Assembly: GCA_964542475.1 (NCBI GenBank)
Contig: CAZIUL010000020.1
Span: 540-64,539 of the forward strand
Reading direction: 5' to 3'
DNA: 64,000 nucleotides
Origin: an uncultured Phycisphaerales bacterium
Lineage (GTDB): Bacteria > Planctomycetota > B15-G4 > CAYZWU01
The position numbers and the translations under genes are program-made. Positions 25,273-56,707 of the stretch are shown one piece after another. A model generated the notes under the pieces. The model searched no databases. It had not been told where the DNA came from and saw nothing but the letters and a program-made list of their open reading frames with translations. Position 1 is the stretch's first letter. The number at the start of each line of letters is the position of its first letter.

Positions 25273-26669
25273 GTTTCAATCCGGTTGTTGTTGTTATTGG
25301 AATCAACAAAGGTAATGCGTTTTCTTCCGGCCATCAGTTTTTCCAGCTTTTCCCCAACTGTCGGAAGAGCGAACGCCACTATCGTGTCCCCCTGCATTAT
25401 CGTGCTGTTCCCATCGGGTATGATGGCCACTCCGTTGCGGTATATCGCGCCAACGAGCGAGCCTTCCGGGAGCCTGAGCTCTCTCAGTGTTTTGCCGACG
25501 GCTTTTGAACCTTTACCGACCAGCAGTTCGATGATTTCCGCGCTGCCGTCTCCGATCTTCTTGACCGAAAGGACCTTTCCCGGTTTTACGAAACGAAGTA
25601 TTTCCCCCACCGCAATGAGACGCGAGTTGACCACGACATCCACGTCCAAAGTGCCCAGGATCGGCACTATATCGGGGTCCCTGGTTATGATAGCTGTCCG
25701 CTTTGCCCCTTTTTTCTTGGCAAGCAGCGCGTAGATGAGGTTCTTGCTGTCATCATCGTGGGACGCGATAAAGAAATCCGCGCCGCCAAGATTAATCTCG
25801 TGGGCCACATCATCTTCAAGCGGATTGCCTTCCACGACCAGCGACTTCTTCAGCACCTTCGAGGCGTTTTCGCACAGATCCGTGTTCACATCCATCAGTG
25901 CAACGGTATCGATCCTGTGTTCAAGTCTCCTGGCAAGGGTCAGGCCGATCCTGCCCGCACCCGATATCACTACCTTTCTCGGTTTTTCCTTAACCGACGG
26001 TAAAAGCTCCTGAAAATGGGGGAAAACATCCCTGGTCATCAGCAGGTATATAGTATCGCCGGGCTTGAGCACATCCGAACCCTTTGGGATTATCATCGCA
26101 TCGTCACGGTTTATCGCAACGATCAGAAACGAAAAATCGCTGAACTTCTTCTTGAGAACGGCAAGCTCCTGGTCATGGATATCTTCATCGCCGGTCAGGT
26201 GGAACCCGCGCAGGATTATCTCACCTCCTGCGAAATCCCCCGCATCCGACGCGCCGGGCGTGTCGAGAACCTTCAGAATATAATCGATCGTGATCTGGTC
26301 CGGGTTGATGATCCGGTTGATGTGAAAATCACGCTTGGAAATCACCGGATCCTTCCGGGTAAAACTCCGGTTCCTCACCCTTGCTATCTTTCGGCGGACA
26401 TTAAACGCGTGCGCCATCATGCAGGTTACCTGGTTCACCTCATCGATGTTGGTCACCGCGATGAGAAAATCCGCGCCCTCGACCTTGGCTTCCTTCAGGC
26501 TTGTGACATTGGTGCCGGATCCCTGGATCACCTGCACATCGAGCTTGTCCTTCAGGCGCTTGATCAGCATCGGATCGTTCTCGATCACAGCGATATCATG
26601 CTTCTCGCGGGATAGCTCTGTTGCAAGGTTGAATCCGACAGCACCGGCACCGACTATCACGATCCTCAT
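25269..26669 (-). CDS. trkA: Trk system potassium uptake protein TrkA (two RCK_N plus two RCK_C)
   Basis: MRIVIVGAGAVG and a second Rossmann segment VVISGAGRIG; 466 aa. Confidence 0.85.
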   Translation of the reverse strand: MRIVIVGAGAVGFNLATELSREKHDIAVIENDPMLIKRLKDKLDVQVIQGSGTNVTSLKEAKVEGADFLIAVTNIDEVNQVTCMMAHAFNVRRKIARVRNRSFTRKDPVISKRDFHINRIINPDQITIDYILKVLDTPGASDAGDFAGGEIILRGFHLTGDEDIHDQELAVLKKKFSDFSFLIVAINRDDAMIIPKGSDVLKPGDTIYLLMTRDVFPHFQELLPSVKEKPRKVVISGAGRIGLTLARRLEHRIDTVALMDVNTDLCENASKVLKKSLVVEGNPLEDDVAHEINLGGADFFIASHDDDSKNLIYALLAKKKGAKRTAIITRDPDIVPILGTLDVDVVVNSRLIAVGEILRFVKPGKVLSVKKIGDGSAEIIELLVGKGSKAVGKTLRELRLPEGSLVGAIYRNGVAIIPDGNSTIMQGDTIVAFALPTVGEKLEKLMAGRKRITFVDSNNNNNRIET

Positions 26670-36553: not shown

Positions 36554-37927
36554 CTATTCGATTTTTATCTCGAGCTGTGACTTCACGGATTCCAGCGTCG
36601 CTTTGTGCTTCTCGACCTTCTTCATGATATCGGCTATCACATCCGGATGTTTTTCCGCTACATCGAACCTTTCGGACGGGTCATGCTCCAGGTGGTACAG
36701 GGCGGGCGGATCATGGGAAACAGGTTTTTCCCCGTATCCGGCCTGGGTTATAAAATGCGCTTTCCACGGCCCGCTTCGAACAGCCATCAGCCTGGTACCC
36801 CGGTAAAAGAACATGCTGTCCCGCCTGCTGTTTCCATCACCTGCCAGAATCGGTATCGCATCCACACCGTCGATCACGCGGTCCGTTGGCAGCTTGGCAC
36901 CGGCCATCAGAAGAGAAGTCGTAAAAATGTCCATTGTACATGCGGGTTGTGCGCTCACTGACCCTGCCTCGATGGTGCCCGGCCACCAGGCTATACATGG
37001 CTCGCGCATCCCTCCCTCCCAGGTGCTGCCCTTCCCCCCGCGCAGGAGGCCGGCTGATCCGCCCCTGAGCCCGCAGATAAGCCACGGGCCGTTGTCGCTT
37101 GTAAAATATACGAGCGTGTCCTGGGCAAGCCCGAGCCCGCGCAAGGTGTCAAGAATCCTGCCCACGCTCCAGTCGAGCTCCTCCACAACATCCCCGTACA
37201 GCCCGCGCCTGCTCGTGTCGCGATACGCATCGGACGCGTATAGGGGAACATGGGGAAAGGTGTGGGCGAAATACAGGAAAAAGGGGGCATCCGCGTTTTC
37301 ACGAATAAAACGTAACGCCTCGTCAGTGTACCGCTCTGTGAGCGTGTCCTGGTCCGCGGGCTCCTCTATCTGCTCTTCGTTTCGCAGCAGCGGACAAGGT
37401 TTCATGTCGTTGCTGTACGGGATGCCGAAGTAATGATCGAAACCTCGCCCGCGTGGAAGGTACTCCGGCAAGTGCCCCAGGTGCCACTTGCCCACGCATG
37501 CGGTGGCATACCCCTCTTTTTTAAGCGCTGAAGCGATCGTGATCTCCGATTCGGGCAACCCGCCCGCCGAATCCGGAAACAGGACGCGCCGCTTGTCGCT
37601 GCACATCCCGGATCTGACAGGGAGCCTGCCGGTAAGCAGGGCCGCGCGGCTTGGCGTGCACACCGATGCCGCCGAATAGAACTGGGTGAGCTTCATGCCC
37701 TCCAAAGCCATCCTGTCCAGGTTTGGGGTCTTGATGGTGGGGTGGCCCAGGCATCCCAGGTCACCGTAGCCCAGGTCATCAGCAAAGATCAAAACAATGT
37801 TCGGCTTTTCCCGGCGGGTAGAACAGTCAAGCGCCCTGCAGCCCGATCCAAGCGGAACAAAAGCCGCGGAACCGGCAAGACATACAAAACCCTGTCCCGT
37901 GGCCTTTAAAAAAGTCCGTCTGTTCAT
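36554..37927 (-). CDS. Arylsulfatase (formylglycine-dependent), Tat-type signal peptide
   Basis: Sulfatase signature CTPSRAALLTGR; MNRRTFLKATG twin-Arg leader; start taken at the internal Met with SD ggagga. Confidence 0.85.
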   Translation of the reverse strand: MNRRTFLKATGQGFVCLAGSAAFVPLGSGCRALDCSTRREKPNIVLIFADDLGYGDLGCLGHPTIKTPNLDRMALEGMKLTQFYSAASVCTPSRAALLTGRLPVRSGMCSDKRRVLFPDSAGGLPESEITIASALKKEGYATACVGKWHLGHLPEYLPRGRGFDHYFGIPYSNDMKPCPLLRNEEQIEEPADQDTLTERYTDEALRFIRENADAPFFLYFAHTFPHVPLYASDAYRDTSRRGLYGDVVEELDWSVGRILDTLRGLGLAQDTLVYFTSDNGPWLICGLRGGSAGLLRGGKGSTWEGGMREPCIAWWPGTIEAGSVSAQPACTMDIFTTSLLMAGAKLPTDRVIDGVDAIPILAGDGNSRRDSMFFYRGTRLMAVRSGPWKAHFITQAGYGEKPVSHDPPALYHLEHDPSERFDVAEKHPDVIADIMKKVEKHKATLESVKSQLEIKIE

Positions 37928-38113
37928 TTCTCCTCCCTTGAAAAAAACGCCCGGCCTGTTTTTTTTCGATGTAAGCCCTGGCTTTGCAAACAGATGCAAC
38001 TGCTTTGAGAGATGCACATTATAATTATGAACTTGCAAGAACCATAATGTTTTTATATTATATGCCGAAAAGTCATATCACAGCTCAAGCCAAACATTTG
38101 AAAGGTAGAAACC

Positions 38114-40426
38114 ATGAAATCATTGCGTACCGTGCTGATCGTGCTTTTTCTCTCGTCCGCTGTCTTTGCATCAGATTGGGTGTCGCTTGCGCCAGGCAGC
38201 CAGGAAGGCGCGACACCAGTGATCAAGGTGCTGTCCTGCGACGTTCATCAGACACAGGTGCAAATCACACTGCCCGGTTTCTTCGTATCGCGCACCCCGG
38301 ATGGTGACCTCATTTCTGTCCCCGGGTGCGGCTCAAAAGGCGACGTGGGCCTCCCCGCGATTCCAGCAGTGTGTTATCTCCTGGCGCTTCCGGAAGGCGG
38401 GGCTGTGGAGATCGAAGTCGATGAGCTTTCCGTGATGTTGCTTGACGGGTACGACATCCTCATGCAGAAGGAGCCGGAAACAGACGCGGCAGCAGCAGCC
38501 CCGAGTCCGAAGCCGCTGCCCTGGCAGAGAAAGTTCCCCTCGGTTTCAGCGGAACAGGGAAGCAGCGGTTACATCAGCGAGCTGCCTGTCTGCTCGATCA
38601 GGACCTATCCGTTTCGCGTCGATGCGGTATCAGGCTCTCTTTCCGTTTGCTCGCGAATGAACGTGACCGTGAAACACGAGTGCGGGACGCCAAACTGGCC
38701 CGCGCCAGCGCTTTCGAGCAGGCTGGTAAAGCGCTGCTCGGACAGCGTTGTCAACTTCGAGTTCGTTCCCAAGGGTTCACCTTCGCGCGGCTCCGACACC
38801 AGGTACCTGATAATCACCACACCAGCGCTTGGATCCGCTGTACAGCCGCTCGCCGAGTGGAGGAACAAGAGCGGCCTCAAAACCGAGGTGGTGACGGTCT
38901 CAACGGGTTCGCAGCAGACGGTGAAAAACATAATCTATCAGTACCCGGACCTCGAATATGTTCTGCTCGTGGGCGATTCGGGAGACATCCCCCTGGCGTA
39001 CTTTTCCGGTAAATACGGTGACCACTGGTACGCATGCACAACCGGCGGAGGAAACCCCGATTTATACGCCGACCTTTCAATAGGCCGGCTTTGCGGATCC
39101 TACTCATCGCGCATCACACCGCAGATCAATCACATCCTGGACTACGAAAAAAGCCCGCTGCTTGGAAACTGGCTCAAAACAACGGTGCTCGTGGCCCACA
39201 AAGAGAACTATCCGTACAAGTATACAGAGTGCAAGAACGAGATCGCGGCAGCGCTTAACTCCTCGAGCAACTGGTCCATCAAGAAGTGCTACGGCGGTGA
39301 AAGCGGTGTAAGCAACGCCACGCTCACCCAAATGATCGAGGACGGCGTCAACCTGCTCAACTACCGCGGCCACGGCGATGTCACCGAGTGGTGGAGCTGG
39401 AACAACTACGGTGAAAGCTACACGAACAACGATGTTGAACAGCTCCAATACACCAACATGCGGCCCATAGTATTCAACATCGCCTGTTATAACGGCGACA
39501 TCTCGAGCTACTGCATGTGCGAGTGCTGGATGGATGCGGACGGCGGCGCAGTGGCGGCCCTCGGCGCAACCGACCCTTCCTACACCATTCCGAACCACGA
39601 CTTCGACAAGAAGCTCTACGAGGCGATCTTCTCCGTGGGGCTTACCGATATTGGAGGCGCCCTCGACTATGCTTCAGATTACATCATCAACAACCACGGC
39701 TGGCTAGGTGAGGACAACGCGAAGATGTACCTGTGGTGCGGCGATCCCGCCATGCGCGTGTGGCTCGACAGCCCATCGGCTTCGATGAGCGCGTCGTATG
39801 ACACGCAGATCGTCGCGGGCTCCCAGAGCTTCGAGGTCGTTGTCACGGACAGCGGCTCACCGGTCCAGGGCGCAACAGTTTGCCTATACCTGGAGGGAGA
39901 GGTTTTCGAGACCGGTGAAACAGGCGCAAACGGCGCTGTCTCGCTCGACATCTCCCCGGCCAGTTCGACCTGCATGTACGTCACAATCACCCATCCCGGC
40001 TACCTGCCCCACGAGGGCGAGGTCTTTATCGGTGGGGGCTCGTTGATGATCGATACGAACAAGATATCAGCGCGCTACGGCGGCACGGTCAACTTCACTC
40101 TGGATGCGGGAGCAGGCCATGCAAACAGGAACTACGTCATGCTCGGAAGCGTCACAGGCACCTCGCCGGGCACCCCGCTTCCAGGCGGCATCGTTACCCT
40201 GCCCATCAACTTCGACATCTTCTCAAACATCGTTATCGCACTTATGAACACAGCGATCTTCACCGATTTCATGGGTACTCTGGACGGATCCGGACAGGGA
40301 TCAGCGCAGCTCAACGCTGTGCCTGTTTCCGGATCACTCGTTGGGGTGAACCTGTACTTTGCATACGGGCTGAAAGGACCATGGAACTACGCGTCAGACC
40401 CGGTAACGATCACAATCGAGCCGTGA
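38114..40426 (+). CDS. Gingipain-like C25 cysteine peptidase, paralog of 1823..4936, with the same C-terminal domain ending ...VTITIEP
   Basis: NYRGHGDVTEW and IVFNIACYNGD catalytic motifs; signal peptide. Confidence 0.7.
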   Translation: MKSLRTVLIVLFLSSAVFASDWVSLAPGSQEGATPVIKVLSCDVHQTQVQITLPGFFVSRTPDGDLISVPGCGSKGDVGLPAIPAVCYLLALPEGGAVEIEVDELSVMLLDGYDILMQKEPETDAAAAAPSPKPLPWQRKFPSVSAEQGSSGYISELPVCSIRTYPFRVDAVSGSLSVCSRMNVTVKHECGTPNWPAPALSSRLVKRCSDSVVNFEFVPKGSPSRGSDTRYLIITTPALGSAVQPLAEWRNKSGLKTEVVTVSTGSQQTVKNIIYQYPDLEYVLLVGDSGDIPLAYFSGKYGDHWYACTTGGGNPDLYADLSIGRLCGSYSSRITPQINHILDYEKSPLLGNWLKTTVLVAHKENYPYKYTECKNEIAAALNSSSNWSIKKCYGGESGVSNATLTQMIEDGVNLLNYRGHGDVTEWWSWNNYGESYTNNDVEQLQYTNMRPIVFNIACYNGDISSYCMCECWMDADGGAVAALGATDPSYTIPNHDFDKKLYEAIFSVGLTDIGGALDYASDYIINNHGWLGEDNAKMYLWCGDPAMRVWLDSPSASMSASYDTQIVAGSQSFEVVVTDSGSPVQGATVCLYLEGEVFETGETGANGAVSLDISPASSTCMYVTITHPGYLPHEGEVFIGGGSLMIDTNKISARYGGTVNFTLDAGAGHANRNYVMLGSVTGTSPGTPLPGGIVTLPINFDIFSNIVIALMNTAIFTDFMGTLDGSGQGSAQLNAVPVSGSLVGVNLYFAYGLKGPWNYASDPVTITIEP

Positions 40427-42545: not shown

Positions 42546-44183
42546 TTGGCGCTTGGATCTGCCCTGAAAAGGCTCTTCCGGTTTCGAACGGGATCGTATA
42601 TGAACAAAACAGGAACTGTTGGATCAGGCTCTATCCGGGGAAACGTCCGCGTGGCAATCATGGCGGCCGCGGGCCTTGTGATAGTAGCCGCCGCCTTTTT
42701 TTTTGTGCCGTCTTTCGGAGAGGACAAGCCCAACATAATCATAATCTCCATCGACACATTGAGGCACGACCACCTCGGGTACAGGGGCTACACTCCTGAA
42801 AACAAGAGCCCGTCCCCGTTCATAGACACGCTTGCACGCGAAGGAGCGGTTTTCACCCGCGCGAGCAGCACTACCACGTGGACACTTCCGGGGCACTGCG
42901 CCATGCTGACCGGTACCCCGGACCAGGTTCACGGCGTGGTCGACGACCGCATCCCCTACGACGCGAGGATCACGACGATCACCCAGGCCCTGAACGACCT
43001 GGGATATGCGACAGGGGGGTTTTTCTCAGCACCGTACATGCACCGGTTCTTCGGATTCTCGCGCGGTTTCGACAAGTACTGGTCCTGTATGTCAGAGGAC
43101 ACCATGTACGACAGGCTGAACGAATGGAAGGATATGTCCAAGGAGCAGGCCTCTGAGGAGGTGGCGATCAGGGAGGTGAAGTCGCACCTCGATGTCACGA
43201 GCGACACAGTGACGAACAAGGCGCTCTTCTTCGCAAAAACCCACAAGGACGAACCGCTTTTCCTGTTTCTGCACTACTTCGATGTTCACAACGACTATCT
43301 GCCCAGGCCTCCGTTCGACAAACGTTTCGATCCAGGGTACAGCGGGTGGGTGGATGGAAGAGCGGTGCTGCGGAATCCTGACATCAAGCCGGACATGGAT
43401 CCCGCGGATCTGAAGCATCTGATAGCGCTCTACGACGGCGAAATCGCGTGGGTGGACCACAACATCTCAAAGCTCTTCGAATCGATCGATTCGGAAATCC
43501 TGGAAAACAGCATCGTGGTGATCACGTCGGACCACGGGGAGGAGTTTTTCGAGCACGGTATGGTTGGCCATCGCGGCAACCTGTACGACCCCACCCTTAG
43601 AATACCGCTTCTTTTCTGGTCGCCGGGCAGGATCCCCCAAGGCATGAGCCTGGATGCGCCTGCCAGGATTTACGACATCTTTCCCACGGTTTTCGACCTC
43701 GCCGGTTACACAGCGCCTGACACGGTCTACGGCACATCGCTCGCGCCGCTGTTAAGAAACGAACCGTTCAAACCGGAGCCGGTGATGGCTGAGCTCGTCG
43801 ATCTGCCTCCCGAGGCGCGGCAGACCGGTGAATTCAGGAAATATTTATCCTATCAAAACAACAGCTTCAAGCTGATCAAGATCGAGAGGAGAAAGTGGTC
43901 GCCCGATAATGCCATCGATTTCAACGGAGAGCTGCTCGAGGAAAGCTATGAGCTATACAACATCGATGACGACCCGAATGAGCTGAATAACCTGTACTCC
44001 AGCGCTCCGGAGATGGCAGAGGTCGTCATGAGGGCGTACGAAAAGGAGCTCGATCGCATGGCGATCCACCGCGCGAAGATAAACGAAGCGGGGCCCATCA
44101 ACCGCTCCTCTCAAGATCTTCCCGAGTGGATGACAGACAGGCTAGAGCAGCTCGGCTACGGAACAGGTTCAAAAACCAGGTAA
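42546..44183 (+). CDS. Sulfatase-family (alkaline phosphatase superfamily) membrane-anchored enzyme with Thr/His in place of the Cys/Arg of the sulfatase signature (TWTLPGH...AMLTG)
   Basis: N-terminal SIDTLRHDHLGY metal-binding motif; the nucleophile position is Thr, which suggests a phosphotransferase/phosphatase-type member rather than a true sulfatase. Confidence 0.65.
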   Translation: MALGSALKRLFRFRTGSYMNKTGTVGSGSIRGNVRVAIMAAAGLVIVAAAFFFVPSFGEDKPNIIIISIDTLRHDHLGYRGYTPENKSPSPFIDTLAREGAVFTRASSTTTWTLPGHCAMLTGTPDQVHGVVDDRIPYDARITTITQALNDLGYATGGFFSAPYMHRFFGFSRGFDKYWSCMSEDTMYDRLNEWKDMSKEQASEEVAIREVKSHLDVTSDTVTNKALFFAKTHKDEPLFLFLHYFDVHNDYLPRPPFDKRFDPGYSGWVDGRAVLRNPDIKPDMDPADLKHLIALYDGEIAWVDHNISKLFESIDSEILENSIVVITSDHGEEFFEHGMVGHRGNLYDPTLRIPLLFWSPGRIPQGMSLDAPARIYDIFPTVFDLAGYTAPDTVYGTSLAPLLRNEPFKPEPVMAELVDLPPEARQTGEFRKYLSYQNNSFKLIKIERRKWSPDNAIDFNGELLEESYELYNIDDDPNELNNLYSSAPEMAEVVMRAYEKELDRMAIHRAKINEAGPINRSSQDLPEWMTDRLEQLGYGTGSKTR

Positions 44184-46885: not shown

Positions 46886-48454
46886 ATGGCCAAGGTGCTT
46901 TTCATTTTTCCGAGCATCAACGCACAGGAGGGTTTCAGCCACGGGATCGCTTCCCTTTCCGGGGCGCTCGAGGCCATGGGCTGTGAGACAAAACTGATCC
47001 ATCTGAGCGACTCGCTCTTCGACCTCCCCACCGCTGACGAGCTCGCCTCGAAGGTCATGGATTTCGATCCTCACCTGATCTGTTTCTCAGCCATGTCTCA
47101 GCAGTACAAGTACGCGCTTGAAATCGCGCGCGAGCTCAAGAAAAGGTTCCCTTTCCCGATAGCCATCGGCGGGGTTCACGCAACAATGGTCCCGGACGAG
47201 GTTGCTTCGGATGATGTGTTCGATTTCATAGGCATCGGAGAGTGCGACAAAGCATTGCCGGCGCTCATGGAAGCGCTGACAAACGACACAGGCTTTACTT
47301 CCATTCCAAACATCTGGGCAAAGACCGATTCCGGGTATAAAAGGAACACGGTTGCCGCCTACCCGGATCTCGAACTTCTGCCGGAAAAGAACCACGAAAT
47401 CTTCGCGCTCGACGAGATGCTTCCCAAGATGAACGGCTGGATGTCGATCATCACCTCCCGCGGGTGTCCCTACAGCTGCTCCTACTGCTTCAACCACCAG
47501 ATCAGAGAGCTTTACAAGCGCGACGCGGGGCAAACCCCATCGGATTACATCAGGCGCTACCCGATAAAACGCGTCATCCGTGAAATGAAAACCATCAAGG
47601 AGATGCATCCCTCGCTCAAGGTCTTCATCGTTGATGACGACCTTTTCACGCTCAACGAGGAGTACGTGCTGTCCTTCTGCGAGGCTTACGCGTCATCCGG
47701 CCTTGACCTCCCGTTCGTGGTGAACGGGCACGTACAGGCGTTCAACCGCCGCATGGCAAAGGCTCTCAAGGCTGCCGGGTGCATGATCCTGAAGTTCGGT
47801 GTGGAGAGCGGCTCCGAAAGGATCCGCAAGGATGTGCTCAAAAGACAGATGAAGGACAAGGCCATATACGAGGCGTTCGAGACGGCGCACGAGGAAGGGC
47901 TGCACACATCAGCGTTCATCATGATCGGACTTCCCACCGAAGGGCGAAAGGATGTCGACGACACGATCGACATGCTGGCCGGGATCGCGCCCGGAAGGTT
48001 CCGCTGGGCCGTTTTCTACCCTTTTCCAGGCACTTCCATACACCGCTTCTGCCTGGACAAGCAGTTGATCGACCTGAAAAGGATGGCGGCTCTTGACAAC
48101 TTCTACGAGGCATCTCCTCTCTGCTTCGATCCGGCCCAGGAGCTTTTGATCAAAAAGCTCCAGCGCGCGTTTCACTGGTACGTGAACGCTCGTTCAAGCT
48201 TTGGCAGCGCTCCTTTGTATGCAAAAGAGGTGGAAGCGATCGAAAACGCATCAGAACAGGAATGGGCTGCAAGGTCTGAACGGTTCATGGACGAGGACAG
48301 AAAAATGTCCGAAAAAATGACCGCGCAATCACGGCTTCATTACTCAATCCGGTTCACCCAGGTGATGGCAGTAAGGTCCGATTTCCAGGAAGCCGGAACA
48401 GAGACCTCACTGCCGGCCAAGGAGTGGAAATCAAAACCCCGGAAATCGTTGTGA
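46886..48454 (+). CDS. Cobalamin-binding (class B) radical SAM enzyme
   Basis: N-terminal B12-binding-like Rossmann domain, CxxxCxxC motif SRGCPYSCSYC, followed by the TIM-barrel region; 522 aa. Confidence 0.75.
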   Translation: MAKVLFIFPSINAQEGFSHGIASLSGALEAMGCETKLIHLSDSLFDLPTADELASKVMDFDPHLICFSAMSQQYKYALEIARELKKRFPFPIAIGGVHATMVPDEVASDDVFDFIGIGECDKALPALMEALTNDTGFTSIPNIWAKTDSGYKRNTVAAYPDLELLPEKNHEIFALDEMLPKMNGWMSIITSRGCPYSCSYCFNHQIRELYKRDAGQTPSDYIRRYPIKRVIREMKTIKEMHPSLKVFIVDDDLFTLNEEYVLSFCEAYASSGLDLPFVVNGHVQAFNRRMAKALKAAGCMILKFGVESGSERIRKDVLKRQMKDKAIYEAFETAHEEGLHTSAFIMIGLPTEGRKDVDDTIDMLAGIAPGRFRWAVFYPFPGTSIHRFCLDKQLIDLKRMAALDNFYEASPLCFDPAQELLIKKLQRAFHWYVNARSSFGSAPLYAKEVEAIENASEQEWAARSERFMDEDRKMSEKMTAQSRLHYSIRFTQVMAVRSDFQEAGTETSLPAKEWKSKPRKSL

Positions 48455-48518
48455 ACGGTTCGGGGAAACCGCGAACAGCTTTGTATGCAAAGCCGTTTTT
48501 TTTCGGTGTTGGACACGA

Positions 48519-49022
48519 ATGAGAATAACACGTTTTATAAGCGAAGACCTGATAAAGCTCGACATGGAGACATGCCGGGATCCGGAGATCGATGATTCGC
48601 TCGAAGGCGACAGACTCATCGCCTGCTACCGCGAACGAGTCATCGGGGAGGTGGCGGACCTGCTCTGCGAATCCGGCAAGGTCGGCAACAGGCAGAAGCT
48701 CTTCACCGATCTTTTGAACCGGGAAAAAAGGGCATGCACTGCCATCGGCCAAGCGTTCGCAATCCCACACGTGCGAACTCTTCAGGCAAAAGACACGATC
48801 ATCGGGTTCATGCGCTCCTGGCGGGGAGTGCCCTTCGGAGCTGCGGACGGGCTGGATGTGCAGGTGTTCATTCCCATTGTCGGGCCGCCTTACAACGACA
48901 AGCTGTACCTGAAAATCTACAGGCGCCTGGGTGAGCTGTTTTCGGAAGAAGGCGTGATCGACCGTTTCATGGACATCGAACAGCCCGGAGAGGTGATCAG
49001 AATCCTGGGCAGCATTTCCTGA
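48519..49022 (+). CDS. PTS EIIA-Ntr (PtsN)-like regulatory protein
   Basis: GQAFAIPHVRT active-site His motif; about 167 aa. Confidence 0.65.
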   Translation: MRITRFISEDLIKLDMETCRDPEIDDSLEGDRLIACYRERVIGEVADLLCESGKVGNRQKLFTDLLNREKRACTAIGQAFAIPHVRTLQAKDTIIGFMRSWRGVPFGAADGLDVQVFIPIVGPPYNDKLYLKIYRRLGELFSEEGVIDRFMDIEQPGEVIRILGSIS

Positions 49023-49056
49023 CCCGGGGCGCATCTACAAAAAGGAGAAAAAAGGA

Positions 49057-49248
49057 ATGGAATGCAACAAGGAAGAGAACGCCAAGAGCTGCGCGTGCAC
49101 CTATTCGAGCTGCGACAAACGCGGCCTTTGCTGCGCCTGCGTGGTCTACCATCGCGACCGTGGAGAGCTGCCGGGGTGCTTTTTCACAAAAAAGGGTGAA
49201 CGCACATACGACCGGTCCATCAAGAACTACATGAAGAATCACTTGTAA
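49057..49248 (+). CDS. 63-aa cysteine-rich small protein (8 Cys: C-x8-C-x-C-x4-C-x5-CC-x-C-x12-C)
   Basis: SD aaaggag 9 nt upstream; high GC3 in this frame; the Cys spacing is non-random. Confidence 0.5.
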   Translation: MECNKEENAKSCACTYSSCDKRGLCCACVVYHRDRGELPGCFFTKKGERTYDRSIKNYMKNHL

Positions 49249-49253
49249 TGGAG

Positions 49254-49273
49254 GGTCGGGTTCCTTCCCGACC
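49254..49273. terminator. Candidate bidirectional hairpin (ggtcggg-ttcctt-cccgacc) between convergent operons; no T tract
   Basis: 7-bp GC stem seen in sequence. Confidence 0.25.
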
Positions 49274-49297
49274 GCAAGATCCGGGCGCCAAGACAGG

Positions 49298-51082
49298 CTA
49301 TGGCATCTCAACCGCCGCGGCAGCGCCGTTCTTTCCGGAAAAGAACAGGTATGTGTGTTTTTCCGGTTTCAGTGCCCGCATCTCGTCAACGGTCACGATC
49401 GGCCAGAGCTTTTTCATGTCGAAATCAAAGCTCTCCTCCCGCGCCCCTTCGGGTCTTGGCTTCCCTACGAGCGCGCCCTTGTCGAGGATCCGGTTGTGCT
49501 GCGGGTCGGTTGTGATGCAGTTGACATCGAGCGCGTCCGTAAACACCGCGCTCTCGGAAGTCACGGACCTTCTCGAATAGATGTAACGCAAGAGCTCCCT
49601 CATGTGCCTCGACAGATCCGCCAATCCCTTCGTCGCAAAAAGCCCGGCAGCGCTCTCCTCGAACAGATCAGCCAAACGATCGAGCAGCTCTTCATCCACC
49701 CTGTTGCTGTGCAGCTCTGAGAGGCTTTCGTGAAGCCCGGCGTTGTACGCGTGCCACGCCCACATCTCGATCAGATCGCCGGCCGGAACCCCTGTAAGCT
49801 TCGAAAGCCGGTAAAAAATCGGCTGCATCTGCCTGTTCCAGTCCGTCATCGCCTTTCCGATCATTACCTGATCCGCGGGAAAGGTGGAGTTGGACACGAT
49901 CTCGTGGCTGGAGCCTGCCCCGCCCTCCTCGATCCCGAACCGCTTCGCTTCCGTGTGAAGCATCGTTCGAGGCAGAACCTCCAGGTTGAACGCAAAAACA
50001 TTAGTGGGCTCCTTTGAATAGACCCAGCTTAGCGACTCCTTGAAGCTCTCGAGGTCATCCCCCGGTAGACCCATTATGATCTCGAGTCCGAGAAGGCAGC
50101 TCTTGTTCACCGCTAGCCGGTCGAGAAGGGCTCCGATCCGGTCGGGGTCCCATTTCCTGTTTATGTTCTCCATTGCCTTGTGGCTCAAGGTCTGGAGCCC
50201 CAGCCCGAGATAGGTGAGCCGGGTTTTGCCGACCGCTTCGACAAAAGCCTCGTCCAGCAGGTTCGGGTGCGCTTCGATCCACAGCGCAGCATCAAGCGAT
50301 ATCTCCGCCATCCGGTCGAGCAGACGCTTCGCCCGCTTCCTGTCGAGGTTGAACGTGGAGTCCACGCAAAAAACCTTTTCAGCCCCGTGGGCCTTGAAAA
50401 AATCGAGCTCAGCTTCCGCCCTGGACAGGGAAAACGCGGCAACGGGGCGGTTCCCCCCGTAGTCACAGTATGCGCACTTGAACGGGCATCCCCTGGTGGT
50501 CTGGAAATAAACACCGCCCTGAACCTCGTCCACGCCGAGAACATTGCTCAGGTATGGAGATTCGTAACAATCGAGATCCTTTGCGGGCATCCTGGTCTTC
50601 GAGAGAAAAGGGCTGCCGTCATCCTTTCGGACAGCGATCCCGGGCACATTCCCGGGCTTCCCGTCTTTCAGCAGCTCGTGCAGGATCCCGCGGAAATTCT
50701 CCTCTCCCTCCCCCACCGACACAAAATCCACACCCGGATTCTCCCGAAGCACTTCCTCGTAGTGGTAATCGACCTCGGGGCCGCCGAGAAAAACGAGCTG
50801 GCCCGGTGTGATCCTCTTGAGCTGCTTCACGATATCGAGAACCCGTGGCGTGTTCCACACGTAGCATCCGAAGCAAACCAGGTCCGGGCCTTCCGCCGCA
50901 ACCTCTTCCGCTATCTGCGCCGCCTCTTTAATGCGTGTGTCGTAATATTGGTGATCGATGCGCAACCGGTCCGAAAGCTCTTTGTCAGCGAGGGCATGCG
51001 CATGGATGTAGCCCAGCCCCAGGAACTTCCTGTGGAAGGTGAAGGGCGTTGGATACGAGGCTGATGCAAGGAGGACCTTCAT
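49298..51082 (-). CDS. Cobalamin-binding (class B) radical SAM enzyme, second paralog-class member
   Basis: CxxxCxxC motif TTRGCPFKCAYC; N-terminal B12-binding-like domain; 594 aa; downstream of iorAB on the same strand. Confidence 0.75.
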   Translation of the reverse strand: MKVLLASASYPTPFTFHRKFLGLGYIHAHALADKELSDRLRIDHQYYDTRIKEAAQIAEEVAAEGPDLVCFGCYVWNTPRVLDIVKQLKRITPGQLVFLGGPEVDYHYEEVLRENPGVDFVSVGEGEENFRGILHELLKDGKPGNVPGIAVRKDDGSPFLSKTRMPAKDLDCYESPYLSNVLGVDEVQGGVYFQTTRGCPFKCAYCDYGGNRPVAAFSLSRAEAELDFFKAHGAEKVFCVDSTFNLDRKRAKRLLDRMAEISLDAALWIEAHPNLLDEAFVEAVGKTRLTYLGLGLQTLSHKAMENINRKWDPDRIGALLDRLAVNKSCLLGLEIIMGLPGDDLESFKESLSWVYSKEPTNVFAFNLEVLPRTMLHTEAKRFGIEEGGAGSSHEIVSNSTFPADQVMIGKAMTDWNRQMQPIFYRLSKLTGVPAGDLIEMWAWHAYNAGLHESLSELHSNRVDEELLDRLADLFEESAAGLFATKGLADLSRHMRELLRYIYSRRSVTSESAVFTDALDVNCITTDPQHNRILDKGALVGKPRPEGAREESFDFDMKKLWPIVTVDEMRALKPEKHTYLFFSGKNGAAAAVEMP

Positions 51083-51094
51083 TCGCTCAAACGC

Positions 51095-51883
51095 TTAAAT
51101 CGCACCCTTATCAAGGAGTTCCAATGCCCTGGCTGTGGTACCGGAGATCTTCTCCCCATCCGCTTCGGCTTTTGACGCAAGCCCGGGATGCTTCTTGAAG
51201 ATCTCCTTCCACACAGGCAGCGAGTCGTCTTCTAGGTCGCGTGGATCCAGAACCGCTGCCAGGACGCGGACATCCGCGGGCAACAACCCCTTCTCCAGCG
51301 CGGCTCGGAAATACCCGCTCATACGGGCCCCGAAATCGAAAGCGTTCCTGTTCACATCAACAGCCTTTTCCCCCTTTGATTTGAAGAGTGCGTCAACGAA
51401 CTCCAGGCATGTCTCGGTGCTGAACGGCAGAAGGGGCGCAGCCGCTCCGAGCATGACCATGTTCTGCGCCTTCGCGCTGCCCGCGAGCTTCGCAAGCGCG
51501 CCCGAATCGAGAAGAACGTGCCTTTCGAGCAGTGCTATCTTTTCGTAAAGCCCGCCCGGCTCGGGGTAATCTGAAATGTTCCTGAAAGGTGTCGAGCTGG
51601 AGATTACAACGCCGTCCGGTTTCAAATATTGGACGTAACGGAGCGCCTCCAACGGATCCACGCTCAACACGAGGTCCGCGGAGCCCTCTGCGATAAGATC
51701 GCTCCAGATCTCGTTCTTGCTGAACCGGATATGGGACTGGACAGCCCCGCCCCGCTGGGACATCCCGTGAACCTCCGCCTGCTTGAACCGATATCCCTCC
51801 TTCATGGCCGCGTTGTCCAGCACAAAGGCGATGGAAAGGATGCCCTGGCCGCCCACGCCCGAAACAATGATGTTCATATCCAT
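51095..51883 (-). CDS. iorB: Indolepyruvate:ferredoxin oxidoreductase, beta subunit
   Basis: MNIIVSGVGGQGIL N-terminus; start trimmed to avoid a long overlap with iorA. Confidence 0.75.
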   Translation of the reverse strand: MDMNIIVSGVGGQGILSIAFVLDNAAMKEGYRFKQAEVHGMSQRGGAVQSHIRFSKNEIWSDLIAEGSADLVLSVDPLEALRYVQYLKPDGVVISSSTPFRNISDYPEPGGLYEKIALLERHVLLDSGALAKLAGSAKAQNMVMLGAAAPLLPFSTETCLEFVDALFKSKGEKAVDVNRNAFDFGARMSGYFRAALEKGLLPADVRVLAAVLDPRDLEDDSLPVWKEIFKKHPGLASKAEADGEKISGTTARALELLDKGAI

Positions 51884-51894
51884 CTGATCCTCCG

Positions 51895-53472
51895 TTACTT
51901 TCTGATCTGGATGCACGGCCGTGTGGGAATGATGACCGAGAGCCCGCTGTAGGCTATCTCGCTCTTGAACAGGGCCACGTTTTCCGCGTGGTGTTTCGGC
52001 AATGGATTTATCACGTGCAGATGCTCGGGATCGACCCCCGCCCCCTTCAGAAGCGAAACCAGCCCGTCTCCTGTTAGCGCGGTTTCCTGTCGGCCCGTCA
52101 TCGCCGTTATCGAGTTGTCAACGATGACGAGCACCATGTTTGTGTCGTTGGCGACCGCGTCGATGAGCGGTGTTATGCCCGAGTGCGCAAAGGTTGAATC
52201 ACCGAGAAGAGCCAGGCACGGGTGGATGCCCGCGGCAGCCGCCCCGTTCGCCATGCTCACGCTGGCACCCATGTCCACGCAGGAGTGAATTGCATTGTAC
52301 GGGGGCAGGGCGCCGAGCGTATAACACCCGATGTCCGAGAACACCCGCGCTTCGGGGTACTCCTTCAGAATCTCGCCGATCGCCTTGTAGGTGTCGACGT
52401 GCGGGCACCCCTTGCAGAGCGCCGGCGGACGGCCGGCCAAAGGCTCGATCACGCTCGAGGCGGCGGGCAGGGGATCCAGCCCGAGCGACGCGCGAACGAT
52501 CGTGGGCGTCAGTTCGCCTGTGCGCGGCAGGCTGCCGTCGAGCTTGCCGTGAACCGGTACAGGCGCCGAATCCATGAAGCCGCGAATGGAGGACTCGATG
52601 AAGGGATAACCGTCTTCGAGTATGAGAACCTCGTCGCAGAAATCGAGTAGCTTTGCGATGAGCGGGCGCGGCATGGGAAAGGTACCCGCCTTGAGAAACG
52701 AAACATCGTCGGCTCCATGGCGCGCGTTCTCCATGAAATAGTTGAAGGCCACACCGGATGCAATCACGCCGAGCTTTTTTCCTTTCAAATCGAGCCGGTT
52801 GAACGGAAGCTCCCAGAGTCTCTTCTCCACATCCGCCCACCTGTTGCAAAGCCTGGCGAAGCTTCGCCTGGCGTTCACCGGAAGAAGCGTGAAAATGCCT
52901 CGATCCTCGCTCTTCGGAAGCTCCTGCCTGGCCTGCTTTTTCTTGCCGGTGACAAGGCTCCGGCTGTGCGCAAGACGTGTGACCAGACGGATCATGATCG
53001 GAAGGCCCAGCTCCTCGGAAAGGCTGAACGCCTCGTAGGTCATGTCGTACGCTTCCTGCTGGTTGCTCGGTTCGAGGCACGGCACATGGCCGAAAGTAGA
53101 ATAGTAACGGCTGTCCTGCTCGTTCTGCGAGCTGTGCATTCCCGGATCGTCCGCAACACACACTACCAACCCGCCGTTGACACCCGTGATGCCGGAGTTC
53201 ATGAAAGGGTCAGCCGCCACGTTGAGACCCACATGCTTCATGGACACCGTGCAGCGCCTGCCGGCATAGGACATGCCCAGCGCCTCTTCGTAAGCCACCT
53301 TCTCGTTGGTGGACCATTTCGTGTAAATCCCGCTGCCCTTGGGCTTTCGCGCCATGACATACTCGAAGATCTCGGTGGCAGGGGTTCCCGGGTATGAAAA
53401 AGCGCCGCTGATTCCCGCGTCGATCGCAGCCTGCGCCACAGCCTCGTCACCCATCAAAATCATCTGACTCAT
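51895..53472 (-). CDS. iorA: Indolepyruvate:ferredoxin oxidoreductase, alpha subunit (TPP-binding)
   Basis: Overall 2-oxoacid:ferredoxin oxidoreductase alpha architecture; 525 aa. Confidence 0.75.
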   Translation of the reverse strand: MSQMILMGDEAVAQAAIDAGISGAFSYPGTPATEIFEYVMARKPKGSGIYTKWSTNEKVAYEEALGMSYAGRRCTVSMKHVGLNVAADPFMNSGITGVNGGLVVCVADDPGMHSSQNEQDSRYYSTFGHVPCLEPSNQQEAYDMTYEAFSLSEELGLPIMIRLVTRLAHSRSLVTGKKKQARQELPKSEDRGIFTLLPVNARRSFARLCNRWADVEKRLWELPFNRLDLKGKKLGVIASGVAFNYFMENARHGADDVSFLKAGTFPMPRPLIAKLLDFCDEVLILEDGYPFIESSIRGFMDSAPVPVHGKLDGSLPRTGELTPTIVRASLGLDPLPAASSVIEPLAGRPPALCKGCPHVDTYKAIGEILKEYPEARVFSDIGCYTLGALPPYNAIHSCVDMGASVSMANGAAAAGIHPCLALLGDSTFAHSGITPLIDAVANDTNMVLVIVDNSITAMTGRQETALTGDGLVSLLKGAGVDPEHLHVINPLPKHHAENVALFKSEIAYSGLSVIIPTRPCIQIRK

Positions 53473-54121: not shown

Positions 54122-55822
54122 ATGAATTGTAAACCTCGATTTTTCAAAACCCTGTTTACACGGTCACGCACAATGAACGAAACATACCGCTATCGCAAGC
54201 TTCTGCACTTCGGAACCCTTCTTCTCCGCGAATCAACACCCGGAGATCTCCAGAAAAACCTGCTCGAGCTCCTGCCCGAGGTTATCGAAATCGACGCGGC
54301 CGCGCTTTTCACCCGCTCTGAAAAAGGTTTCTGGTCAGCAGAAGCCTCACCAGCGAGCGGCAAACTTCTCGACAGTCTCGGACCCAAGCTCAAACGTTAC
54401 GCGGGCAAGATGAACAGCAGGCATCCGGGACAGAAAGCCATGGTCAATCCGTTGATCATCGGCCCGGCGGAAGAGAACGGCCCCACGCGCTTTCCCGTGA
54501 TCGCGGCGTTTCCTCTCGTGGTAATGGGAGAGATCACAGCGTTCATCGTCGCGGCAAGGCGGTCAAGGGAATCGTTCAGCACCGACGACTTCAACAGGCT
54601 CGACAATGTGTCAGCCATCCTTTCCACCTGCATGGAGAACCAATCAGGCATAAAACGGGCCAGGCTTCACGCGGACAATCTCGAGGCACACAACCGCATT
54701 CTCGTCGAAACACTGCCTGACGGATTGGTCAGGGTGAACAACAGGTTCGAGGTGCTGGAGGCGAACAGGTACGCGAGCGAACTTCTTCAACTGAAGCCCG
54801 AAGAGATAATCGGAATGAAGTGCTTTGATACCGTTTGCAACGAAAAGCGGTCAACCTGCCCCGTGTTCAGCAGCGAACGCGACCACCTGACTTTTGAGAG
54901 CACGCTGCCCGTCCACAACGGGCAAGGCTGTAATGAAGTACATGTCCTGAAAAGCACGCGCCGCTACAGCCTGGGAGGCGAAAAGTTCGCCATCTGCACG
55001 TTCAAGGACATCTCGAAGCTCAAGCTCATGGATCAAAAGCTCAAGGACTACGCGGAGAACCTGGAAAAGAAGGTTGAAGAGCGGACAGCAGACCTCAAAG
55101 AGGCGCAGCGCCACCTGCTGCAGTCCGAAAAGCTGGCAGCCACCGGGCGCCTCGCAGCCTCCATCGCCCACGAAATCAACAGCCCGGTCTACGGAATCAA
55201 GGGATGCCTGCAGTCCATCCGCGACGAGCTTTCCCTGGATGCGGATTTGCGAGGATTCGTGGATCTTTCCCTCGAGGAAACGGACAGGATCTCGGACCTG
55301 ATAAGAAAGATGCAGAACCTGAACCGCGTGTCGGACGGAAAACGCTCCGTTCAGGACATCAAATCGGTTCTCAAGGATATGCTCGTTCTCTGCAACCCGT
55401 ATCTCCAGGAAAAAAGAATATCGCTCCAGACCAGCTTCGACCGGAAGATGTATCGCGCCTTGGTCTGCGAGGATGAGATCAAACAGGTCTTCATCAACCT
55501 GATAAACAACGCGGTCGAAGCGATGCAGGACGGCGGAAAGCTCATCATCTCCACGCGAATGCGCGGGGCAACCATGGAGATCGCTTTCGAGGACTCGGGG
55601 TGCGGCATGTCAACAGAGGTGAAAAAAAGGGTGTTCGACGCTTTCTTCACGACCAAGTCCGCTGTGAAAGGCGTTGGGCTCGGCCTGCCAATGTGCTGGG
55701 GAATAGTTCGCAGGCACGGCGGAAACATCCTGGTGGACAGCAAACCCGGCAAAGGCTCCACCTTTGTCGTGATCCTGCCCGCGGCAGGGAAAACCCGCGA
55801 AAAAATTCCTCACAAAGTGTAA
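54122..55822 (+). CDS. Sensor histidine kinase (GAF, PAS, HisKA, HATPase_c), orphan
   Basis: H-box SIAHEINSPV, N/G boxes NLINNAVEA and GVGLGL. Confidence 0.8.
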   Translation: MNCKPRFFKTLFTRSRTMNETYRYRKLLHFGTLLLRESTPGDLQKNLLELLPEVIEIDAAALFTRSEKGFWSAEASPASGKLLDSLGPKLKRYAGKMNSRHPGQKAMVNPLIIGPAEENGPTRFPVIAAFPLVVMGEITAFIVAARRSRESFSTDDFNRLDNVSAILSTCMENQSGIKRARLHADNLEAHNRILVETLPDGLVRVNNRFEVLEANRYASELLQLKPEEIIGMKCFDTVCNEKRSTCPVFSSERDHLTFESTLPVHNGQGCNEVHVLKSTRRYSLGGEKFAICTFKDISKLKLMDQKLKDYAENLEKKVEERTADLKEAQRHLLQSEKLAATGRLAASIAHEINSPVYGIKGCLQSIRDELSLDADLRGFVDLSLEETDRISDLIRKMQNLNRVSDGKRSVQDIKSVLKDMLVLCNPYLQEKRISLQTSFDRKMYRALVCEDEIKQVFINLINNAVEAMQDGGKLIISTRMRGATMEIAFEDSGCGMSTEVKKRVFDAFFTTKSAVKGVGLGLPMCWGIVRRHGGNILVDSKPGKGSTFVVILPAAGKTREKIPHKV

Positions 55823-55876: not shown

Positions 55877-56707
55877 ATGAATCCGGATAAAGAAGCTGCG
55901 CATCCGAGCCGCGGCACATCTCCCCTGCCGCTGAAGGCGATCATAGGAGTTTTACACCTGAACCCTCTGCCGGGCAGCCCAGGCTACCCGGGCGCAGGCG
56001 GCCTTGAAGCGGCAAAAGAAGCTGTGCTCGCGGATGCCGGTGCCCTGGAGCAGGGAGGAGTGGACGCGCTTCTGCTGGAAAACTACGGAGACACGCCGTT
56101 TTTACCAGGCCGGGTCGAGCCGCACACGGTGGCGCTCATGTCCGTGATCCTGAAGGAGATCTCGACCAGGAGCAGCCTCCCGCTCGGGGTAAACGTGCTC
56201 AGAAACGATGCTTATGCCGCGCTCGGCATCGCCCTGGCAACAGAAGCCTCCTTCATGAGGGTCAACGTGCTCACCGGCGCATGCACAACGGACCAGGGCA
56301 TCATCCACGGCGAGGCGCACAAGGTGCTCAGGTACAGAAAAAGCTTGAACTCGAGCACTGCGATACTCGCGGATGTGCACGTGAAACACGGCCGTCCGCT
56401 TGCCGCGGGCGAAAGCATCGAAGAAGCGGCGAGGGATGCTTTTTACAGGGGACATGCCGACGGCCTGATCGTAACAGGCCCGGCGACCGGCACAGCCATC
56501 GACCTCAATGATATAGACAAGGTCAAGTCCGCGGTCATTGAAGCGCCGGTTTTTGCGGGAAGCGGTGTGTGCGAGAAGAACGTCAAAGAGATCCTCGCGC
56601 TGGCTGACGGAGTCATCGTTGGAACGTCGCTCGAGCGAGAAGGCAAAACAGGTGCGCCGGTGGATATCAGCCGGGTCGAAAAGCTCGTTCGCGCGGCACG
56701 CGACTAA
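55877..56707 (+). CDS. BtpA/SgcQ-family TIM-barrel protein
   Basis: GVLHLNPLPGSPGY N-terminus typical of the BtpA family. Confidence 0.6.
   Translation: MNPDKEAAHPSRGTSPLPLKAIIGVLHLNPLPGSPGYPGAGGLEAAKEAVLADAGALEQGGVDALLLENYGDTPFLPGRVEPHTVALMSVILKEISTRSSLPLGVNVLRNDAYAALGIALATEASFMRVNVLTGACTTDQGIIHGEAHKVLRYRKSLNSSTAILADVHVKHGRPLAAGESIEEAARDAFYRGHADGLIVTGPATGTAIDLNDIDKVKSAVIEAPVFAGSGVCEKNVKEILALADGVIVGTSLEREGKTGAPVDISRVEKLVRAARD

Follow-up and report, generated by a model that had tools for sequence, protein, structure and literature searches.

Why should the genes of two different cobalamin-type radical S-adenosylmethionine (SAM) enzymes lie together with those of a regulator resembling enzyme IIA (EIIA) of the phosphotransferase system (PTS), a cysteine-rich mini-protein and an indolepyruvate ferredoxin oxidoreductase (IOR)? 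The question is raised by a locus at positions 46886-53472 of a 64,000-nucleotide stretch of DNA from an uncultured Phycisphaerales bacterium (assembly GCA_964542475.1, contig CAZIUL010000020.1, positions 540 to 64,539 of the forward strand), the whole of which is called the window here. A preliminary description of this DNA had suggested a regulated modification system and had considered a link to an aromatic substrate, and either may apply. Our analysis leads to a tentative answer in which we place somewhat less than even confidence, namely that the locus may be a lineage-restricted, operon-level module of one Phycisphaerae clade, in which the IOR would supply electrons and the EIIA would tune activity, and not a cluster for a ribosomally synthesized and post-translationally modified peptide (RiPP) or another natural product. 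The gene combination itself is real and, as far as our searches show, undescribed.

Gene order and conservation of the locus

All six open reading frames (ORFs) of the preliminary description were found again at the same coordinates and with the gene identities given there. On the plus strand the first radical SAM gene (rSAM1, 46886-48454, 522 aa) is followed by a stand-alone, PtsN-like EIIA gene (48519-49022, 167 aa) and by the gene of the mini-protein (49057-49248, 63 aa with eight cysteines and His32), which belongs to the family DUF6485 and has a strong Shine-Dalgarno sequence, AAAGGAGAAAAAAGGAATG, upstream. Convergent to these genes, the minus strand carries the operon that begins with iorA (51895-53472, 525 aa, IOR alpha subunit) and iorB (51095-51883, a gene call of 262 aa whose mechanical ORF extends to 51916) and ends, as had been proposed, in the second radical SAM gene (rSAM2, 49298-51082, 594 aa), 12 nt downstream of iorB. 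Identical proteins are also encoded on JGI and Logan metagenome contigs.

A scan of species-representative metagenome-assembled genomes (MAGs) yielded 60 loci with rSAM1 homologues. The best 120 matches are 45-100% identical, and in nearly all of them the alignment spans 95% or more of the query. At the level of 45-48% identity, rSAM1 homologues are found in many MAGs of Planctomycetota, the majority of which carry the label Phycisphaerae or Planctomycetales. The neighbours known from the window were sought in the 60 loci by targeted phmmer and tblastn searches, and contigs of closer relatives were examined too. Greedy clustering of the ORFs in the same loci was swamped by long antisense ORFs of these GC-rich genomes and yielded no neighbour conserved beyond the clade. 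Three arrangements were observed. In arrangement A, present in the window, in L067/L068 (rSAM1 64% identical) and on the contig of P0122/P0004 (66%), iorA-iorB-rSAM2 converges with rSAM1-EIIA-DUF6485. Arrangement B, found in L064/L065 (64%), on the P0012 contig (61%) and in L072, is alike without rSAM2. In arrangement C, represented by L004-L007 (56-59%), the genes rSAM1-EIIA-iorA-iorB are all co-directional, again without rSAM2, and DUF6485 stands between EIIA and iorA in L007 only.

The conserved core consists of rSAM1 and EIIA plus an IOR and is limited to one Phycisphaerae clade, divided into the sister clades with arrangements A/B and C, while rSAM2 and DUF6485 are accessory to it. The linkage of rSAM1-EIIA with iorAB is kept through an inversion and through loss of flanking synteny, as the genes for a CarboxypepD_reg protein, a histidine kinase and a BtpA protein are mostly not retained within ±10 kb in arrangement C. 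In all four species with this arrangement the stop codon of rSAM1 and the start codon of EIIA overlap within an ATGA (L004 11569-11572, L005 4750-4753, L006 6463-6466, L007 11566-11569), a sequence feature that indicates translational coupling of the two genes. Between the two clades rSAM1 is 56-59%, EIIA 61-64% and IorA only about 41% identical, and the adjacency of the IOR persists although the type of IOR differs; this is the best argument that the linkage is selected. With the small ORF and EIIA conserved in related genomes, the iorAB linkage surviving rearrangement and neither radical SAM enzyme reaching the curated cutoff of a characterised family, the grouping of these genes in the preliminary description holds. 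Its view of the two radical SAM enzymes as a pair does not: L064/L065, the P0012 contig and L004-L007 have no rSAM2, the gene being present in three related contigs and absent from three, and this pattern of presence and absence rules an obligate pairing out. Within arrangement A the divergence of rSAM2 (62-66% identity) parallels that of rSAM1, which argues for vertical inheritance within a subclade.

In the window the 64-nt spacer between rSAM1 and EIIA contains a terminator-like hairpin, GCTTTGTATGCAAAGC, followed by a T8 run (48478-48503, plus strand), and rSAM1 is therefore perhaps not always co-transcribed with the two genes downstream. The hairpin is not conserved, as relatives have either the ATGA overlap or a spacer of 36-42 nt. 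The preliminary description had also pointed to a GC hairpin in a 50-bp gap between the convergent operons. The gap between the convergent stop codons measures 49 nt and does hold a 7-bp GC hairpin (GGTCGGG-TTCCTT-CCCGACC, 49254-49273, not assigned to a strand), which could act as a bidirectional terminator; it has no T-run, its fold energy is unexceptional against shuffled sequences (z = -0.59), and the statistics do not back it as a notable terminator. Promoter and terminator scans of the region gave no counts above shuffled expectation, with 9 terminator-like sites found and 8.5 expected.

The proteins of the locus

Pfam matches were judged against gathering scores with a listing threshold of E ≤ 0.01, NCBIfam matches against curated cutoffs. 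Both radical SAM proteins contain the B12-binding-like domain and the CxxxCxxC motif that had been read from their sequences, with PF02310 (52.5 bits in rSAM1, 66.5 bits in rSAM2, cutoff 32.1) and PF04055 (73.3 and 57.1 bits) above gathering scores. The cluster-binding cysteines are Cys194/198/201 in rSAM1 (RGCPYSCSYC), invariant in 22 homologues, and Cys199/203/206 in rSAM2 (RGCPFKCAYC). A C-terminal DUF4070 domain (PF13311), which the preliminary description had brought up, was detected in neither protein at this threshold and was seen only in the distant homologues P0151-P0153. Neither enzyme reaches the curated cutoff of any family. The best NCBIfam match of rSAM1 is ApyD (NF050148) with 147.7 bits against a cutoff of 750; HpnJ (103 vs 578), AprD4 (96 vs 500) and the ladderane family (86 vs 360) also fall short, and rSAM2 reaches 153.5 bits with its best NCBIfam match, the KedN5 family (NF033712), at a cutoff of 700.

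For rSAM1 the comparison with solved structures gives no preference. Its AlphaFold2 model (predicted local distance difference test, pLDDT, 91) matches TsrM, MgmA, AprD4, TokK, OxsB and CysS about equally, at a template modelling (TM) score of about 0.6 and 12-19% identity, and in sequence its radical SAM core is closest to AprD4 (83-100 bits). AprD4 has a B12-binding domain but no cobalamin (PMC12931638). The position of TokK Trp76, a residue that lies at the lower face of the cobalamin and marks radical methylases (PMC12931638), is taken by Gln72 in rSAM1 according to a weak 48-bit profile alignment, and Gln at this position occurs in enzymes other than radical methylases (PMC12931638). From the likeness to AprD4, from Gln72 and from the low identities it follows that the chemistry of rSAM1 is not assignable and that its predicted binding of cobalamin is not a given; the enzyme may not be a methylase. 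Among its more distant homologues, all three from Acidobacteriota are divergent from a gene for a heptosyltransferase of glycosyltransferase family 9 (GT9; L152, identical with L026, 5576-12794; L044 8739-9980; L060 8540-9775), and in L152 WaaA-like, Kdo-kinase, LpxD-PP and ketoacyl-synthase (KAS) genes are present in addition. This lipopolysaccharide (LPS)/lipid A context may be a hint to the substrate of the rSAM1 family.

rSAM2 can be placed more closely. A PDB search ranks TokK (100 bits) and CysS (84 bits) highest. These nearest solved relatives of rSAM2 are C-methyltransferases of the cobalamin-dependent radical SAM type that act iteratively, and rSAM2 has a CYVWN motif in which W76 is aligned to both. 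By these alignments rSAM2 is probably a B12 radical C-methyltransferase of a small molecule, outside any named family. No more than 28 further proteins share 40% identity or more with it, after which the next match falls to 31%; those that carry a label belong to Planctomycetota, save one fragment from Acidobacteriota (Polarisedimenticolia). Homologues at 54% and 44% identity are found in unrelated contexts.

The regulator had been described as a PTS-EIIA(Ntr)-like protein, in agreement with its PTS_EIIA_2 domain (PF00359, 80.7 bits), which is preceded by an N-terminal extension of 37 aa. Its best PDB matches are the PtsN structures 2A0J and 3URR, and His84, the putative phospho-acceptor, aligns with the active-site His of PtsN. 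This residue lies in the motif A-[IL]-P-H-V-R-T (AIPHVRT in the window) and is invariant in seven orthologues that are 61-74% identical. The PtsN equivalog cutoffs are missed by a wide distance (TIGR01419 35.3 vs 138.7 bits, NF008145 28.4 vs 221), as is the FruA cutoff, and the protein is therefore called PtsN-like and not PtsN; it scores slightly better on fructose-IIA domain models than on the PtsN equivalogs. Some 20 kb from the EIIA gene the window contains a trkH-trkA potassium-uptake pair (23755-26669, minus strand). In E. coli PtsN is known to bind TrkA; a link between the two loci is not claimed.

IorB matches PF01558 and exceeds the cutoff of the equivalog NF005324 (248.2 bits, cutoff 222). 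About 70 residues, none of them cysteine, extend its C-terminus, in the window as in L064, L067 and L072. In IorA both PF01855 and PF02775 were detected, together with the proximal-cluster motif CKGCPH...GC. With TIGR03336 (cutoff 650.9) it scores 505.8 bits; the alignment runs over profile positions 3-535 of 595, and C-terminal Cys motifs are missing. Since the protein stops at position 535 (ending RPCIQIRK), it is without the C-terminal 2x[4Fe-4S] domain. The same truncation, with the end RPC[IV]QIRK, is present in L064, L067 and L072, and on the P0012 contig as judged by length. In contrast, the IorA of the sister clade is of canonical full length (L004-L007, about 41% identical to that of the window): in L004 it passes TIGR03336 with 679.7 bits over positions 2-595 and carries CINCGMCRKTGCP...CNVCAQVCP. 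All five lineages with a ferredoxin-less IorA (window, L064, L067, L072, P0012 contig) carry DUF6485, an association that is suggestive but confined to one clade. Oxidoreductases of this superfamily (2-oxoacid:ferredoxin oxidoreductases, OFORs) with a single cluster and without a ferredoxin domain exist in archaea.

The mini-protein was assigned to DUF6485 (PF20095) with 31.7 bits against a cutoff of 24. The small Cys-rich ORF with eight cysteines was rightly noticed as a gene, whereas the family PF04071, put forward in the preliminary description, gave no match. Compared with L064 its codons differ 17, 12 and 36 times at the first, second and third position, many of the changes being synonymous, and this third-position bias argues that the ORF is a real gene. 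Orthologues within the clade are 61-76% identical. C3, C12, C14, C25, C26, H32 and C41 and the motif PGC.F..E..YDR are invariant in the family, and C19 and C28 are conserved in at least 90% of members. The family members are stand-alone proteins of 62-76 aa, 52-77% identical to the window protein across phyla that include Edwardsbacteria, Omnitrophota and Actinobacteria. An exhaustive profile search gave 527 representatives at 50% identity; the best 150 of them are all 50-132 aa long and include no fusion to an enzyme. Two tandem DUF6485 domains in P0254 (128 aa) are the only multi-domain architecture among these 150. The structural model has a pLDDT of 85 and predicts a compact fold, a PDB search with the sequence gave no match even at E ≤ 10, and the family has no solved fold. 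The protein is presumed to bind a metal or an Fe-S cluster.

In 78 of the 80 best metagenome loci of DUF6485 there is no radical SAM or IOR neighbour, the exceptions being L072, from the window's own clade, where iorBA adjoins DUF6485, and L126. The latter is a short contig on which DUF6485 (34-213) is followed after 50 nt by a gene for a B12-type radical SAM enzyme (265-1356) 33% identical to rSAM1. Elsewhere among the 80 loci DUF6485 neighbours RidA, MalQ-like, PabA/TrpG-like, TRAP or Mpl genes, and in other phyla the next gene on the same strand is RidA/YjgF-like in 14 loci (at about 21 nt), a MalQ-like 4-alpha-glucanotransferase in 14 and a PabA/TrpG-like amidotransferase in 9. The RidA, MalQ and PabA assignments were read from representative sequences (e.g. 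L133 6203-6583, L100 3391-4950, L071 5207-5776) without a Pfam run. In L067 (9911-10117, minus strand) and L068 (9183-9362, minus strand) DUF6485 is present yet uncalled by the source annotation pipeline, and such under-annotation of small ORFs would bias neighbourhood statistics. Within the clade DUF6485 is absent from L004-L006 while rSAM1-EIIA-iorAB persists. Distribution, contexts and this absence together exclude DUF6485 as a cluster-specific precursor peptide, and the proposal that the Cys-rich ORF is the substrate of the cluster was abandoned.

Possible roles of the locus

How could these proteins work together? In the module that we tentatively propose, IorAB would oxidatively decarboxylate arylpyruvates and thereby deliver low-potential electrons. 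Flavodoxin or ferredoxin reduced by an OFOR is the physiological reductant of radical SAM enzymes. With the ferredoxin domain of IorA lost in the window's subclade, the electrons would have to pass to a separate carrier, which might be DUF6485 or a conventional ferredoxin, and from this carrier they would reach the [4Fe-4S] cluster and the cobalamin of the neighbouring radical SAM enzymes. IorAB might also, or alternatively, supply aryl-acyl substrates, and rSAM2 would most likely C-methylate a small molecule. A PTS(Ntr)-type relay that responds to carbon/nitrogen status would phosphorylate the EIIA at His84, and the EIIA would bind one of its neighbours and tune its activity, by analogy with PtsN, which regulates enzymes by direct binding, among them the thiamine diphosphate (ThDP) enzyme AceE (PMC3312210). 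In P. putida it is the non-phosphorylated EIIA(Ntr) that binds AceE, lowering pyruvate dehydrogenase activity (PMC3312210).

Several observations weigh against this proposal. In evolutionary terms the two arrangements count as no more than about two independent cases. At roughly 50 loci with rSAM1 homologues of at most 51% identity (L008-L063, L066, L151-L153) there is no EIIA, DUF6485 or IOR nearby, and the function of the rSAM1 family therefore does not need these partners. In the window the terminator-like hairpin parts rSAM1 from EIIA, and domains of EI, HPr/NPr and rpoN were not found among the 39 window proteins scanned. DUF6485 sits beside RidA, MalQ and PabA-like genes in other phyla and is without a ferredoxin-type CxxCxxCxxxCP motif. 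The idea of a replacement ferredoxin rests on one clade, since L007 combines a full-length IorA with DUF6485, and in L004-L006 both the truncation of IorA and the mini-protein are absent. We consider it quite unlikely that the reading can be carried to its furthest form, in which DUF6485 would be a new small Fe-S or redox-metal carrier that replaces the ferredoxin domain of IorA and wires an OFOR to cobalamin radical SAM enzymes, gated by a dedicated EIIA.

The IOR might be tied to the radical SAM enzymes through a substrate instead of electrons. IorAB would then make arylacetyl-CoA or handle arylpyruvate, and one or both radical SAM enzymes would modify the product, for example by C-methylation through rSAM2, to give a modified aromatic acid or lipid head-group. 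In the window and in L067 rSAM2 belongs to the operon of iorB, which it follows at a distance of 12-13 nt. This position would suit such a route, as would the co-directional rSAM1-EIIA-iorAB core of L004-L007, which is taken as co-transcribed, and the precedent of TokK and CysS, which methylate small molecules, CysS having been crystallised with pantetheinylated substrates. We nevertheless hold this to be unlikely, because no CoA ligase, acyl carrier, transferase or exporter occurs among the neighbours in the window or its relatives, half of the lineages with rSAM1 and iorAB side by side have no rSAM2, no IOR lies close to the rSAM2 homologues of 44-54% identity, and the specificity of the IOR for arylpyruvate is a prediction. 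Also improbable, in our judgement, is the absence of any direct coupling, with the genes being neighbours by descent that perhaps share regulation (amino-acid fermentation, anoxia) and rSAM1 performing a family-wide housekeeping task alone. Most rSAM1 homologues indeed have entirely different neighbours, the window around the locus reads as ordinary chromosome (sulfatases, C25 peptidases, GH38, TrkAH), and common descent would account for the long-range synteny among the closest relatives (CarboxypepD_reg protein, histidine kinase, BtpA, DUF3857). Yet the core outlives inversion and the loss of this flanking synteny, the ATGA coupling is found in four species-level lineages, and the IOR stays adjacent while its type differs between the clades.

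A role in the cell envelope, with the rSAM1 family modifying a glycolipid (LPS/lipid A) or polysaccharide and EIIA and the IOR adjusting this to nutrient status, would be in line with the heptosyltransferase and lipid A genes beside the three Acidobacteriota homologues and with the VanZ-like and Bac_transf genes that adjoin the rSAM1 homologue in L018, L037 and L038. Such contexts are confined to few lineages, the window's locus has no envelope-biosynthesis gene, and the cutoffs of the lipid-modifying families HpnJ and ladderane are missed by far; we regard this role as quite unlikely. Least probable of all is that the 63-aa peptide is a RiPP precursor for the radical SAM enzymes, either methylated or processed in the manner of the SCIFF (six cysteines in forty-five residues) peptides and other ranthipeptides. 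It is true that two radical SAM genes here have a small Cys-rich ORF next to them, that the best NCBIfam match of rSAM1 is the RiPP enzyme ApyD and that on the independent contig L126 DUF6485 stands directly upstream of a related B12-type radical SAM gene. The ApyD score, however, is five-fold under its cutoff, and the genes called around the locus, in the window and in its relatives, include no protease, exporter or RiPP recognition element (RRE)/PqqD domain. The high identity of DUF6485 across unrelated phyla, its invariant residues over the full length without a leader/core split, its predicted compact fold, the 78 of 80 loci without a radical SAM neighbour and its loss in L004-L006 with retention of the module all speak against a precursor, and distribution and context in effect rule it out.

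In our literature searches no paper was found that names DUF6485, none that joins Phycisphaerae, radical SAM and B12-binding, and none that links an IOR with cobalamin radical SAM clusters. Nor do these searches show any earlier description of a stand-alone EIIA whose gene is coupled in translation to that of a radical SAM enzyme and stays adjacent to an OFOR. The genes are uncharacterised members of known superfamilies in a narrow lineage, and the mechanism is a proposal built on their sequences; four of the six (rSAM1, rSAM2, the non-canonical EIIA and DUF6485) belong to families without a characterised member close enough for function transfer. If the proposed module is real, regulation of the PTS(Ntr) type would reach into the anaerobic radical or low-potential redox metabolism of Planctomycetota, and if DUF6485 did serve as the carrier, the locus would form a self-contained, nutrient-sensed 'power supply' for radical SAM chemistry. 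The conserved partners offer a handle on the function of a radical SAM family that occurs in many uncultured Planctomycetota MAGs and give DUF6485 its first testable context. As the locus does not appear to be a natural-product cluster, the value for mining implied by the preliminary description is low.

Surroundings of the locus and comparison with known systems

Divergently from iorA the plus strand encodes a PAS-HisKA-HATPase sensor kinase (54122-55822) and a TIM-barrel protein of the BtpA/SgcQ family (55877-56707; PF03437, 288 bits), and for both the membership in the module is uncertain. The kinase gene is syntenic in the closest relatives only and is absent within ±10 kb in L004-L007. 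The BtpA/SgcQ gene is a recurrent neighbour, found near rSAM1 in L006 (9258-10151), L007 (19102-19875), L067 (721-1527) and L153 (5716-6525); the last is a distant case, L018/L153 being a Phycisphaerae lineage with rSAM1 at 48% identity. In E. coli sgcQ shares an operon with the EIIA_2 gene sgcA. An obligate partnership of BtpA with rSAM1 was considered and is not claimed, since it would be based on only 1 of about 50 distant loci, which is too sparse.

The rest of the window is an ordinary Phycisphaerae-like chromosome with genes for a Znu-type ABC transporter, TrkAH, 3-deoxy-D-arabino-heptulosonate 7-phosphate (DAHP) synthase, glycerate kinase and a glycoside hydrolase of family GH38. It further encodes two large Peptidase_C25 (gingipain-like) proteins (1823-4936, minus strand; 38114-40426, plus strand), several sulfatases (36554-38038 and 42546-44183) and peptidases of the families M3 and M49. 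The C25 peptidases, sulfatases and M3/M49 peptidases point to the polymer-degrading lifestyle that is typical of Phycisphaerae. No hallmarks of biosynthetic clusters were found in the window.

Compared with known systems, each part of the locus has a recognizable relative and departs from it. The model of rSAM1 superposes on all Class I B12-radical SAM folds considered (TsrM, MgmA/QCMT, OxsB) and on AprD4, at the TM score of about 0.6 given above, but with 12-19% identity and no curated family cutoff reached. With the C-methyltransferases TokK, CysS and KedN5 rSAM2 shares the cobalamin-binding Rossmann domain, the radical SAM barrel, the CxxxCxxC motif and CYVWN, whereas only its residues 58-380 align, its C-terminal 200 aa or so being unrelated, and it lies in a planctomycete iorAB operon and not in an antibiotic cluster. 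The EIIA has the PTS_EIIA_2 fold family and the AIPH histidine in common with PtsN (EIIA-Ntr) and stands alone without an EIIB or EIIC partner; unlike PtsN it has a 37-aa N-terminal extension, and its gene, instead of adjoining rpoN, hpf or npr, stands between radical SAM and IOR genes. The short conserved Cys-rich ORF beside radical SAM genes recalls SCIFF/ranthipeptide systems, yet DUF6485 lies beside a radical SAM gene in 2 of 80 loci at most, and the radical SAM enzymes here are of the B12 type without a SPASM domain; to our knowledge SCIFF peptides are always paired with a SPASM-type maturase. With canonical IorAB, finally, the window proteins share an IorB that qualifies as an equivalog and the POR_N and ThDP-binding domains of IorA, and they differ from it by an IorA that stays below its family cutoff and lacks the 2x[4Fe-4S] domain and by an IorB that is longer by about 70 aa.

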